Assembly (NCBI GenBank): GCA_030698565.1
Contig: JAUYJS010000008.1
Coordinates: 225,275-289,274 of the forward strand
From: Candidatus Shapirobacteria bacterium
GTDB lineage: Bacteria; Patescibacteriota; Microgenomatia; UBA12405
Reading direction: 5' to 3'
Length of the DNA: 64,000 nt
In this document: piece by piece, positions 56,901 to 64,000 of the stretch
Layout: each line of letters opens with the position of its first letter
Position numbering within the stretch: position 1 is the first letter of the stretch
Made by a program: the position numbers

Positions 56901-59900
56901 TTTTCTGAATTATTTATCAGAAAGTAGGAGAGTGATGGAAATCAACGATATCAAGGTCGAGCGAGTTGATACGAAGTCAGAAGGAAATGTAGTCAGTAGT
57001 GCTAATAATCTTAATTTAAATTTTACAACTCAATTATTTTATGAAGGTAATCAAAGATGAAAAAAAATAACCTATCCTCCTATTTTGTTTTTATCTCATT
57101 TTTTACCTGTATTACTGTGTTTATTCTTATTGTTCAAAAAAGTTACAGCAATATAATTGGTCCCACTCAACAAATTAAAGTCGATCAATTTTTAGATAAT
57201 ATTGATCCAAATCTCAACTTAGAAGTACTAAAACAAATAGAGGCAAGAAAAGAATATACAATAATTCAAACCACAGAAGAATCCACTGTTTCGTCAGAAA
57301 TTAATCCCACTCAACTATGAACAAGGAAAAAAGAATACCTACCGTTCTTGGACTTATTTTACTTATCGGAGGAATATTTGCGGGGGTTGCTTTTAATAAC
57401 CAAGAATTATTTCTAGGTTCAAAAGCCAGTGGAGATTGCAAACCAATAAATCCCCAAATAACCAATATTACTCACAATTCTTTTGACGTATCATTTATAA
57501 CAACAGACACCTGTCTATCAAACATTGTCTTAGGGGGTAAAAATATTGCCGATATTAGATTTGTAAATACCAATACCGAACCGACTCCCAGCAAAATTCA
57601 TTATTTTCAAATAAATAATTTAGATGCAGAAACTAGCTATAGTTTTTATTTTTTAAATAATGGCGAAATATTTAACAGTTCTCAATATCAAACAAAAACA
57701 GCTCGAAAACCAACAGTCCAAATACCCTCTTCAAATTTAGCCTGGGGTAGAGTTTTAAACTCGGACTCAAAACCAGCGGTCGATTCAATTGTATATTTAA
57801 ACATTCCAGGAGCGTCTCCCTTATCTTCTTTTGTCACATCAAACGGCAACTGGAACATTTCTTTAGCAATTAGTTTCAATGATGCCAAAGATGATTGGTT
57901 TGTATCACCAAAAAATATCGAAGAAGATGTCATTGTCATTTCCCAGGATGGTCAGGCCACCCAAATTACCGGCAATACATCTCACAACAATCCATTTCCG
58001 GACATAATAATTGGCCGCAATTCATTTTCACTTGTACCCGCCAATCCTGAATCCGACAGTATTAGTAACTTAAATTCTGTATCACAGGTTTCGACCAATA
58101 AAAACTTAGAGATAAAGAACCCATCAGAAGGTGAATCAATTTCTACCTTAAAACCCGATTTTTTTGGAACAGGTCCAATCAACTCCAAAATTATTATAAA
58201 AATTGAATCAACTCAGTCCATTAATGATGAAACGACCACACAAAATGACGGAAGCTGGCATTGGTCACCACCTCAAAACCTAACACCTGGAGAACACACA
58301 ATCACAGCTACGGCTCAAAACCAAACCACTGGTTTAGTAGAAAGTGTTAGTCGCAAATTTATTGTCTTAGCCTCTGATAATAATAATTTAGCTTTTAGTT
58401 CTTCTAGTTCAGCCAACCTTGTCACTCCTACAATTATATTACCCTCCCCCACCATTATTTCCACGCCAACACCGACTGTAGTTGAAATAAGTCCAACCTC
58501 AACCCCAGTTGTCAGAGCCGCCAAACCAAGCACAAGCTCTGGCATGCCAGTAGCTGGTGGCTCATTACCGACAGTAATATTTACTACCATTGGAATACTC
58601 TTGTTCGGAGCTGCTTTGATATTCTAATAATAATTACTCTAAATCTAGGGAATAGTGACTTTGCTTGGTTTTCTGGTATTATTATGAAGCTAAAGATGAT
58701 AAAAAACGACATAAAATTTAAAGCGGTTTTTGAAGCGTTGCGGCCAAATCAGTGGATAAAAAATTTAAATTTATTTGCGGCCACTATTCTCAATGGCCAG
58801 CTTTTTAATAGCACTATTTTTATTGATAGTTTTTTAGGTTTTATTGTTTTTTGCTTCCTCTCCTCGTCTTCATATTTAATAAATGATGTTGCTGATATTC
58901 AAAAAGATCGACTCCATCCCGTCAAAAAAAATCGTCCCATAGCCAGAGGGGATGTTAGTGAGCAAACAGCTGTTGTTACATCCTTATTTCTTTTATTCAC
59001 CGGTTTATTTATCGCTATTTTCATTAATTTTGGTTTTTTCATAATTTCTTTGATTTTTATAATTCTGCAATACTTATATTCATTCATAATAAAAAAGAAA
59101 GCCGTTTTCGACATTATCAGTATTGCAATATTTTTTATAATCCGAGCTTATGCCGGTGAAATAGCTACTGGTTACCATTTACCTGTTTGGATCATGTTGG
59201 CAGTTATTTTTCTTTCTTTATTTATTGCTAGCGGAAAGCGTCGCAGCGAACTAGTTAATCGAGGTTCTAAAAGCAGAACAGCTCTTGAAGGTTATAGCCG
59301 AAGTTTATTAAATTTTTACACGACTATGTTTGCGGTTTGCACATTAATTGCCTACGCCCTATATACTTTTTTTGCCGAACAACTTAGTTTCCAAGGACTA
59401 ATTCACAGTTTTTTATCTGAAAATTATCCATCGGTATTAGACAGAAAATGGTACATGATAACCTTATTACCCGTAATTTTTGGAATTATGAGATATGGTC
59501 AAATTATTTTTGAAATGCAAGAAGGTGAACGTCCAGAACGAATTATCGCTACAGATATACCTCTTCTTGTTTCCGTTATGATTTGGGGACTAATGATGAT
59601 AGCTATTGTGTATGCTTTATAAAAATGGGGTATTTAAGGCTTTAATAATATTTTGTTTGGTTTCAACAACATTATTTACTCGCTTTTATGGATTAAACTG
59701 GGGAGATCATTATTACTTTAACCCAGACGAGAACAACATGGCTATCTCCATATCTCAGTTAAGTTTCAATAATTTAAACCCACATTTTTTTGCATACGGT
59801 CAGTTTCCGTTATATCTAGTTTTTATTTCAGCTCAATTAATAAATTTTATTAAAAGCAGAACTTTTGTTGAACATGTAAATTTTGAAAATGCCATATTTG

Positions 59901-62900: not shown

Positions 62901-64000
62901 ACTTGCCCAACAAATTAATTTATTTTTTAATCTCTGGTCATATTATTTTTTCAATTTTATTTTTATCGATATACACCAGACCACATTCTCGAGTTCAAGC
63001 CTCACAATGGATTTATCAAAACATTCCAGCTGATTCTAAAATCACCAACGAATATTGGGACGATCCTTTACCCCTAAATTTTTCCAGTCGCTATTTTTCT
63101 GATTACAAAAACAACATGTTGCCTTTGTATGATCCCGACACTAATGAAAAATGGAACCAGCTAGATCCGATTATAAAAAATGCGGACTATATTATTATGT
63201 CGTCAAACAGGTTATGGGGATCTATTCCGCAAGTCCCCGACAAATATCCGCTCACAACTAAATTTTATCAGGAACTTTTTGATGAAAAAAATAATTTCAA
63301 AAAAGTAGTCGAAATAAATTCTTATCCTGGAATAAATTTACCTTTCATGAAAAAATGTATTTACATCGGCCCAACAAATTTTCCATATAAAGACAAAAAA
63401 AATACTTGGTTTTACATAGACAATTATTGCCAATATCCTGGTATCTTCTTAAGAGATGATACTGCAGAAGAGGCCTTTACTGTTTACGATCATCCAAAAG
63501 TATTAATTTATAAAAACTTAAAAAATAATGAAAATTAAAAAAATATTTTTTTGGCAACCACAAGAAGACATTCTAAAAAAACTACTCTCTATTAATTTGG
63601 GAAAATTTTTAGTAATTTTTCTTAACTATTCTATTTGGGTATTTTTATTTTTTGTATCCTATTTATTAGTCAAAAAAGATCCAAATATTTTTTGGCAACT
63701 TTTACTAGCTACCATTATTGGAGAAATAATTGAGCAATTAGTAAAAAAACAAATCTATTGGCGCCGTCCCCTTTTTGAAAGAAAAGACAAAACACCCCCA
63801 GGACTAGTTGATAGGTGGTATAAAACTGGCAGCTTTCCCTCTGGACATTCTATTAAAGCCGTTTTCTTTTTTTTGTTTATTTTACAGTATGGAGTCATCC
63901 ATCCATTAACTTTTAGTCTAATAGCAATTCCTCTTATATTATTTAGAGTCTTAGTTGGTTTTCACTATCCAATCGACATATTAGGTGGCTTATCCATCGG

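Follow-up and report, generated by a model that had tools for sequence, protein, structure and literature searches.

A candidate PRPP-derived pentofuranose glycosylation cluster in a Candidatus Shapirobacteria genome and its relatives among the Patescibacteria

Introduction

The closest precedent for the locus described here is the pentofuranose system of Citrobacter youngae O1 and O2, which draws on phosphoribosyl pyrophosphate (PRPP) and has three components: ORF15, a PPPRS-phosphatase; ORF14, a MATE flippase; and ORF12, a GT-C glycosyltransferase of family GT136 (Kelly et al. 2024, PMC11127046). The PPPRS, the phosphatase and the GT-C together add ribofuranose outside the membrane, and an optional further gene, ORF13, encodes an epimerase of the short-chain dehydrogenase/reductase (SDR) type; the same authors point to uncharacterised candidates in both Gram-positive and Gram-negative bacteria, some of them with several GT-Cs (PMC11127046). 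Here we present a gene cluster that resembles this system. It lies at the end of a 64-kb stretch of DNA (the window, to which all coordinates refer) from a metagenome-assembled genome of an uncultivated, ultrasmall bacterium of Candidatus Shapirobacteria (NCBI proteins MDP4010175-84), a lineage of the Candidate Phyla Radiation (CPR) or Patescibacteria, and it begins with a gene for a UbiA-type protein. An earlier note on this DNA had read the cluster as a polyprenyl-phospho-pentose donor pathway of a CPR-like organism, and the source of the sequence agrees with that affiliation. We put at roughly 0.6 the probability that the cluster is a cell-envelope glycosylation module with a PRPP-derived, lipid-linked ribofuranose donor.

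Two other systems are relevant to the comparison. The mycobacterial decaprenyl-phospho-arabinose pathway employs Rv3806c, Rv3807c, DprE1/DprE2, Rv3789 and the Emb/Aft GT-Cs; Rv3807c, which lies next to Rv3806c in Mycobacterium tuberculosis, is a PAP2-superfamily phosphatase (PMC11127046). In Pseudomonas aeruginosa the group IV pilin is O-arabinofuranosylated by the GT-C TfpW, together with a PPPRS and DprE1/E2 homologs, as outlined in bioRxiv 10.1101/2020.04.19.049825 and PMC11127046. As for the CPR/Patescibacteria, almost nothing is known about their cell-surface chemistry, though the cells live attached to hosts, and our literature search found no paper linking them with decaprenyl/DPPR, arabinofuranosyltransferases, GT136 or DUF2298. 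The pathway logic is known and the genes have already been annotated automatically; two features stand out, the conservation of the module across a large CPR lineage and its species-variable cassette. The cluster would extend the recently defined pentofuranose glycosylation paradigm beyond the Proteobacteria and Actinobacteria.

Results and Discussion

Gene content and comparison with described systems

Five consecutive overlapping open reading frames (ORFs) occupy the + strand from 58684 to 64000, where the earlier note had placed them, and the last is cut by the window end. A 16.8-kb public contig (L001), identical to the last 10,932 nt of the window, reaches 5.9 kb further downstream. The gene block runs past the PAP2 gene: after a 4-nt gap comes the gene of a DUF2298/Chlor_Arch_YYY membrane protein, the sixth of the cluster, followed by UvrD, FemAB and GatC. 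The cluster is thus composed of:

58684-59622, + strand: UbiA-type protein, 312 aa (the gene caller starts at 58696, the second ATG, giving the 308-aa numbering)
59606-61192, + strand: GT-C1, 528 aa from a TTG (the likelier ATG at 59612 gives 526 aa)
61185-61808, + strand: S-adenosylmethionine (SAM) methyltransferase, 207 aa
61790-63538, + strand: GT-C2, 582 aa from a TTG (577 aa from the caller's GTG at 61805)
63528-64000, + strand: PAP2 phosphatase, ATG start, cut by the window (the full protein has 189 aa and would end at 64097)
64102-66216 in window-equivalent coordinates (11034-13148 of L001): DUF2298/Chlor_Arch_YYY protein, 704 aa (TIGR03662, 451 bits)

The translations contain all of the peptide motifs that had been quoted for them, NDVADIQKDRLHP...NRPIARG in the UbiA-type protein and RFYGLNWGDHYYFNPDEN and RIYGITWDQGYHLHPDER in the two GT-Cs.

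Like the Citrobacter system, this locus encodes a UbiA-type, predicted PRPP-using phosphoribosyltransferase, a candidate for removal of the 5'-phosphate and a GT-C predicted from sequence to act as an extracytoplasmic transferase; in both, the sugar would stay ribofuranose where there is no epimerase. C. youngae serotype O2 has an SDR epimerase within its cluster, as do some relatives of the present locus. The differences are also considerable. The phosphatase is a separate PAP2 membrane protein here, whereas C. youngae has a fused HAD domain; there is a MATE flippase in C. youngae and none in this cluster; two paralogous GT-Cs plus DUF2298 stand where C. youngae has one GT136 enzyme with a carbohydrate-binding module; and a SAM methyltransferase lies within the cluster, unlike in C. 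youngae. Moreover, the Citrobacter genes are a serotype-specific O-antigen side-chain add-on, whereas the present ones are a conserved core of a CPR lineage, and the organism that carries them is presumably monoderm and, unlike C. youngae, without lipopolysaccharide.

With the mycobacterial pathway the locus shares a homologous phosphoribosyltransferase (E 8.6e-37), a PAP2 partner in the cluster and several candidate GT-C consumers; unlike that pathway, it has yielded no DprE1/DprE2 and no GtrA-like flippase, and its GT-C families differ. The mycobacteria-like logic proposed earlier consequently holds for the Rv3806c/PAP2 pair, but the closest precedent is the Citrobacter system and not the arabinan pathway. 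In the TfpW system, as outlined in the sources given above, a GT-C uses a PPPRS-made lipid-linked pentofuranose to O-glycosylate Ser/Thr of a surface protein, whereas for the present locus protein glycosylation is hypothetical; directly upstream of it come PilN-like genes and the gene of a surface protein rich in Thr and Pro, it has no epimerase, and we identified no pilin gene beside it.

A phosphoribosyltransferase of the Rv3806c type

The UbiA-type protein matches Pfam PF01040 (E 6.5e-25), as had been anticipated, and passes the NCBIfam model for decaprenyl-phosphate phosphoribosyltransferase (NF008978; 212.1 bits, cut-off 207). Two sister models gave 175.5 and 162.7 bits, each under its own cut-off, and the NCBIfam models for quinone, haem O, chlorophyll and ether-lipid prenyltransferases all stayed below 60 bits; on this basis we rejected an identity as a quinone or ether-lipid prenyltransferase. 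Against the PDB, the protein matched entry 8j8j, the M. tuberculosis Rv3806c, with 130.6 bits (E 8.6e-37), as compared with 45.6 bits (E 6.5e-11) for the prenyltransferase 4tq3 and 31.1 bits for a DGGGP synthase.

Rv3806c holds Mg2+ with N73 and D77, the ribose with N73 and Q135, the 5'-phosphate with K28, Y70 and Y157, and the pyrophosphate with a Lys/Arg cluster (R22, K87, R90 and K143) plus Y138; its phosphoribose sites are unconserved in other UbiA enzymes (PMC10994848). Aligned to Rv3806c, the window protein keeps R22, K28, Y70, N73, D77, K87, R90, Q135, Y138 and K143, and has F in place of Y157, a replacement also seen in some mycobacteria (PMC10994848). In an alignment of 38 CPR relatives these PRPP-binding residues are invariant, as are N63, D64 and D67 (308-aa numbering) of the NDxxD motif, in which NDVAD of the window protein aligns with NDVRD of Rv3806c. 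NCBI annotates the identical protein as decaprenyl-phosphate phosphoribosyltransferase. Judged by its sequence, membership in the DPPR synthase/PPPRS family of the Rv3806c type is established, and the protein is very probably a phosphoribosyltransferase. The signature recognised in the earlier note was thus a true one, and the protein does not group with the MenA/UbiA quinone prenyltransferases.

Conservation of the module in the Patescibacteria

When one genome for each GTDB species was scanned, at least 578 loci with UbiA relatives came up; we compared the best 80 of them. These 80 all come from Patescibacteria, mostly Microgenomates, and nearly all fall into two arrangements. In 37 loci (type A) the UbiA gene is directly followed by GTC1, and in 33 of them by GTC2 as well. 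The longer of the Shapirobacteria loci read S20 – MurJ – PilN-like – p210 – p87 – p436 – UbiA – GTC1 – GTC2 – a variable interval of 0-5.6 kb – PAP2 – DUF2298 – UvrD – FemAB. In a further 39 loci (type B, from Levybacteria, Paceibacterota, Woesebacteria and others, all within L040-L081) UbiA comes directly after a WecA-like gene, the usual block being TatD – GT2 (498 aa) – GT-C (PMT_2) – a 117-aa protein with three transmembrane segments – WecA-like phosphotransferase – UbiA; a GT-C is detectable in most, though not all, of them. The other four loci are three truncated contigs and one that looks degraded. Taken together, the phosphoribosyltransferase-like gene has at least one GT-C as a neighbour in every one of the 37 type A loci and in the majority of the type B loci. 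That a pathway should be kept next to GT-Cs in such drastically reduced genomes argues for an important envelope glycan; in the Shapirobacteria and Gottesmanbacteria the module is a conserved core of the genome. The type B architecture is suggestive of a pathway for a wall polymer that draws on the same donor. MraY was considered for the WecA-like gene and rejected, WecA being the best model.

A minor point concerns the names of the public sequences. Many clear Patescibacteria contigs, with 65-74% identity and synteny with Shapirobacteria, are titled 'uncultured Gammaproteobacteria bacterium', and one is titled 'Candidatus Methanoperedens sp.'; these names are mislabelled or placeholders.

The two GT-C proteins

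GT-C1 and GT-C2 are full-length paralogs (28% identity, E 5e-34), in keeping with what had been claimed for them. Pfam PMT and PMT_2 both score above their cut-offs on GT-C1 (30.6 and 29.4 bits), which NCBI names 'glycosyltransferase family 39', and PMT_2 reaches 23.7 bits on GT-C2, slightly under its cut-off of 26.1. Neither protein has a sequence-level match in the PDB. Their AlphaFold models are confident (pLDDT 91.4 and 92.5, built on 61 and 71 homologs, respectively) and match GT-C enzymes only, at 11-16% identity; as modelled, both membrane proteins have the GT-C fold that the earlier note had expected. In the structural comparison of GT-C1, ArnT ranks first (22.3), ahead of ALG12 (21.4), Pmt4 (18.8), AftB (14.9), AftA (13.3) and EmbA (9.2), and the best matches of GT-C2 are protein O-mannosyltransferases (PMTs). 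The pair is therefore closer to ArnT and the PMTs than to Emb or Aft: of the likenesses previously suggested, that to ArnT stands and that to the mycobacterial arabinofuranosyltransferases does not.

In the homolog alignments a PDE motif is invariant in both GT-Cs, in the first external loop after transmembrane segment 1 (TM1), where GT-C2 reads WDQGY...HPDER. The catalytic acidic motif of the PMTs sits at this same position. With the PMTs (GT39) and ArnT (GT83) the pair thus has in common the GT-C fold, a first external loop with an acidic DE motif and hits to Pfam PMT or PMT_2, that of GT-C2 lying below the cut-off. Unlike the PMTs, neither protein has a match to the MIR domain, and both carry an unrelated alpha/beta domain, C-terminal and extracytoplasmic; unlike either the PMTs or ArnT, their genomic partner is a phosphoribosyltransferase rather than a synthase of polyprenyl-phosphate-mannose or of the 4-amino-4-deoxyarabinose (Ara4N) donor.

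The window contains a third GT-C, at 32091-33446 on the - strand (450 aa; PMT_2, E 2.9e-13), with an LDEA motif after TM1. Its gene is an isolated one, flanked by CTP synthase and the ATP synthase operon, and the protein has no close relationship with GT-C1 or GT-C2.

Donor synthases, epimerases and flippases

A Pfam sweep of 61 proteins (59 window ORFs, among them every ORF of at least 186 aa, plus the complete PAP2 and DUF2298 proteins of L001) found no FAD_binding_4/ALO domain (DprE1), no adh_short (DprE2), no PF01370 epimerase and no GT2-type polyprenyl-phosphate-hexose synthase. For the other genes of the 5.9-kb downstream stretch the precomputed Pfam matches are to UvrD, FemAB and GatC only, and tblastn with the accessory genes of relatives detected neither an SDR epimerase nor a GT4 in the window. 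No DprE1 or DprE2 was found in the window, in line with what the earlier note had remarked, or in the 5.9 kb beyond it, where it had been thought worthwhile to look. Since no competing donor synthase was found in the window, the UbiA-type protein is the only predicted lipid-sugar donor synthase near the GT-Cs, and the two neighbouring GT-Cs probably consume its product. Since no epimerase is encoded nearby, ribofuranose is the simplest sugar to be transferred. We consider it somewhat favoured that the sugar indeed stays ribofuranose, which, with the family of the UbiA-type protein confirmed, lends support to the predicted ribofuranose-based surface glycan.

The sole flippase-like gene near the cluster lies 2.8 kb upstream of it:

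54169-55836, + strand: MurJ, MOP-superfamily flippase (TIGR01695, 263 bits against a cut-off of 235.55; Pfam MurJ, E 2.1e-74)

Its score above the cut-off of the MurJ equivalog makes a role as lipid II flippase the most likely one, and we have set it aside as the flippase of the pathway.

The proposed pathway

The pathway that we propose would start on the cytoplasmic face of the membrane, where the UbiA-type protein would move 5-phosphoribose from PRPP to polyprenyl phosphate, giving polyprenyl-phosphate-5-phosphoribose. On the precedent of Rv3806c and Rv3807c, PAP2 would then strip off the 5'-phosphate to leave polyprenyl-phosphate-ribofuranose. In this genome, the soluble SAM methyltransferase might, speculatively, O-methylate the lipid-linked sugar; this would have to occur before export, because a product outside the membrane is out of reach for a SAM enzyme in the cytoplasm. 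A flippase would carry the donor across the membrane, and GT-C1 and GT-C2 would pass the pentofuranose to an extracytoplasmic acceptor; one might prime and the other extend, or the two might form a heterodimer, and DUF2298 might join in. The phosphoribosyltransferase, PAP2, the methyltransferase and the two GT-Cs are expressible enzymes, so that these steps are testable in vitro without cultivation.

A number of observations weigh against this pathway. All of its functional statements are predictions from sequence. The cluster encodes no dedicated flippase for it, MurJ having been set aside and no MATE or SMR/GtrA flippase being encoded from 58684 to the end of DUF2298. AftB, AftA, AftD and Emb all rank below ArnT, PMT and ALG12 in the structural comparisons, and the GT-Cs therefore show no special likeness to known pentofuranosyltransferases. 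The inspection covered about 70 kb, whereas the contig measures at least 354 kb, and an epimerase could be encoded elsewhere. The methyltransferase is found at this position in one of the 80 related loci (L025) besides the window. The gene overlaps are real, measuring 17, 8, 19 and 11 nt for the longest ORFs or 11, 8, 4 and 11 nt with the starts of the public gene caller, but overlap is ordinary in this genome: of the window's 52 same-strand junctions, 18 show an overlap and 32 fall within 20 nt. The translational coupling earlier read from them thus finds only weak evidence in overlap alone, conserved synteny being the stronger evidence for a functional association. Finally, consensus scans for promoters and terminators stayed at the level of chance or of shuffled sequence (78 against 75 expected, and 16 against 10), so that the operon boundaries cannot be set. 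Further difficulties attach to PAP2 and are taken up below together with the alternative that they favour.

PAP2, DUF2298 and the alternatives

PAP2 matches Pfam PF01569 (E 6.8e-10), the family predicted for it, with its catalytic motifs KX6RP, PSGH and RX5HX3D intact, and by analogy with mycobacteria we slightly favour its being the 5'-phosphatase that makes polyprenyl-phosphate-ribose. It could instead work together with DUF2298 as a phosphatase of the carrier lipid (undecaprenyl diphosphate), in which case another enzyme would dephosphorylate the donor or the 5-phosphoribosyl lipid would itself be the donor. Its only NCBIfam matches, weak ones of about 24 bits, are indeed to the undecaprenyl-diphosphatases SepP and PRK11837. 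In most relatives the variable cassette parts PAP2 from UbiA-GTC1-GTC2, by a distance of 0-5.6 kb to UbiA, while PAP2 remains adjoined to DUF2298, which follows it almost without exception in the type A loci with a PAP2 gene, 23 in number; no PAP2 was detected in any of the 39 type B loci. On the other hand, a PAP2 beside a phosphoribosyltransferase is exactly the mycobacterial arrangement, and PAP2 overlaps GT-C2 by 11 nt. The loop that bears its motifs has 9 Lys/Arg, and a crude positive-inside count hints that it lies on the cytoplasmic side, where the 5-phosphoribosyl lipid would arise; this location, a hint only, would suit dephosphorylation before flipping. A carrier-lipid role therefore seems unlikely, although of the alternatives it survives best.

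DUF2298 is at most a possible third GT-C. It shares with GT-C2 a WD[KQ]GY motif after TM1, and hhalign aligned the same junction motif between the last transmembrane segment and the C-terminal domain, at weak probabilities (17% against GT-C2 and 9% against GT-C1). Its profile has no match in the PDB, BLASTP against the GT-Cs was not significant, and we found no functional literature on the family; the motifs are shared, the homology is unproven.

A second alternative leaves the donor aside and turns on its use. GT-C1 and GT-C2 could be ordinary PMT/ArnT-like transferases with another lipid donor, such as polyprenyl-phosphate-mannose, their adjacency to UbiA being no more than inherited order in a compact genome, and the UbiA/PAP2 product could be used by another enzyme, for instance DUF2298 or the PMT_2 protein at 32091-33446. 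The Pfam PMT/PMT_2 assignments and the family 39 name of GT-C1 are what such transferases would show, and overlapping genes are the norm here; yet a GT-C fold does not predict the donor, since Emb, Aft, TfpW and GT136 are all different GT-C families (PMC11127046). One related locus (L018) keeps UbiA-PAP2-DUF2298 without GTC1 or GTC2, but its DUF2298 match is about half length, which suggests decay. Nor was a GT2-type polyprenyl-phosphate-hexose synthase found among the 59 window ORFs and the two downstream proteins, and an accident of gene order sits badly with UbiA-GTC1 adjacency in 37 species and with the fact that most of the 39 type B loci link UbiA to another GT-C. We regard this explanation as improbable.

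Much the same improbability attaches to a variant in which the pathway operates as proposed but the sugar is an epimer, arabinofuranose or xylofuranose, with the epimerases elsewhere in the genome. Six related loci have an SDR epimerase/dehydratase inside the cluster and in seven (five of them of the Gottesmanbacteria type) the gene immediately before UbiA encodes an FAD oxidoreductase (NF005560), and our inspection covered some 70 kb. However, the characterised systems all keep their epimerase genes in the cluster (PMC11127046), whereas the sweep of the 61 proteins gave no DprE1, DprE2 or PF01370 domain and the tblastn search with the SDR epimerase was negative in the window; the slot occupied by the FAD oxidoreductase is empty here, the gap between the upstream gene and UbiA being 56-68 nt. 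That UbiA is a conventional quinone, haem O or ether-lipid prenyltransferase and the cluster unrelated to pentose donors, as its PF01040 membership and the JGI name '4-hydroxybenzoate polyprenyltransferase' of many orthologs might suggest, is effectively refuted by scores below 60 bits against 212 for the phosphoribosyltransferase model and by the retention of the phosphoribose-specific K28, Y70 and Q135.

The methyltransferase and a variable cassette

The methyltransferase is of the class I SAM type (Pfam Methyltransf_25/12/31/23/11) and, with no transmembrane segment predicted, soluble. Given its rarity among the relatives, it is an accessory gene and not a conserved member of the module. 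The possibly methylated glycan of the earlier note accordingly keeps its enzyme and loses its generality, and methylation of the lipid-linked donor seems doubtful.

In other Shapirobacteria the interval between GTC2 and PAP2 contains various combinations of a GT4 Leloir glycosyltransferase (14 loci), the SDR epimerase/dehydratase mentioned above (6 loci), whose best NCBIfam match is HpnA-like, methyltransferases of the FkbM type and of class I, and additional GT-Cs of the PMT_2 family. Cassettes of 1-5.6 kb are present in L003, L006, L007, L009, L014-L017, L019-L022, L024-L028, L030, L034 and L067; the version in the window is the minimal form, with neither epimerase nor GT4 and with a methyltransferase inserted. 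There is a parallel in C. youngae: its side chain is xylofuranose or ribofuranose depending on whether one SDR epimerase is there or not (PMC11127046). This pattern, which differs by species, is that expected of a surface-glycan diversification locus, and the cassette probably diversifies the glycan between species. The FAD oxidoreductase upstream of UbiA (NF005560, 369.6 bits; amine-oxidase fold) occurs in L035, L037-L039 and L047, of the Gottesmanbacteria type, and in L031 and L036. It is possibly a non-homologous counterpart of DprE1, or else another modifier of the lipid-linked sugar or lipid.

Acceptor candidates and neighbouring genes

Upstream of the cluster lie genes that bear on the acceptor:

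55862-57320, + strand: PilN-like block (weak PF05137, then single-transmembrane proteins of 210 and 87 aa), each gene overlapping the next by 4 nt
57317-58627, + strand: Ig-like surface protein (Pfam Big_13), directly upstream of UbiA; its stalk is rich in Thr, Pro and Ser and its sortase signal is of the MPVAG type

The PilN-like block is preceded by MurJ and has no PilM; it is conserved across the Shapirobacteria and lies near UbiA even in Levybacteria loci. Orthologs of the Ig-like protein are found in L002-L034 and L067, between the PilN-like/p210/p87 block and UbiA and usually directly upstream of the latter. In 28 Shapirobacteria loci besides L001 (one of them interrupted by a masked stretch) the Thr/Pro/Ser-rich stalk is followed by [IVM]P[KVT][TSA]G, a transmembrane segment and a basic tail, which by its sequence is a sortase-type sorting signal. 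Thr/Pro-rich stalks are classical O-glycosylation targets.

The acceptor can only be a matter of speculation: the Thr/Pro-rich stalk of this protein, pilins or a wall-linked glycopolymer are all candidates. The best structural matches of GT-C2 to protein O-mannosyltransferases, the TfpW precedent and the stalk itself count toward a protein acceptor, whereas the type B clusters, with a WecA-like initiator and a GT2, look more like wall-polymer synthesis; we think the stalk a rather unlikely acceptor. In its most specific form the idea would be that GT-C1 and GT-C2 act as a pair, in the manner of PMTs, and add O-linked ribofuranose to the Thr/Pro-rich stalks of sortase-anchored surface proteins, and possibly to pilins, with O-methyl-ribofuranose in this strain and with the Ig-like protein upstream of UbiA as the foremost candidate acceptor. 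This too is unlikely. If true, it would be a kind of protein O-glycosylation not described before, and one conserved in both Shapirobacteria and Gottesmanbacteria, and the variable cassette would generate a serotype-like surface diversity relevant to the host attachment of these episymbionts.

Elsewhere in the window are a membrane O-acyltransferase (Acyl_transf_3; 24663-25724, - strand) and a ferric-reductase-like NAD/FAD membrane oxidoreductase (10816-12030, + strand), both unusual in a reduced CPR genome and with no link to the cluster found. Near the other end of the window, an ice-binding-like (PF11999) protein (4320-5537, + strand) ends in LPNTG and a hydrophobic tail, and its gene overlaps by 13 nt that of a sortase (5525-6124, + strand); the two look like a substrate-sortase pair.

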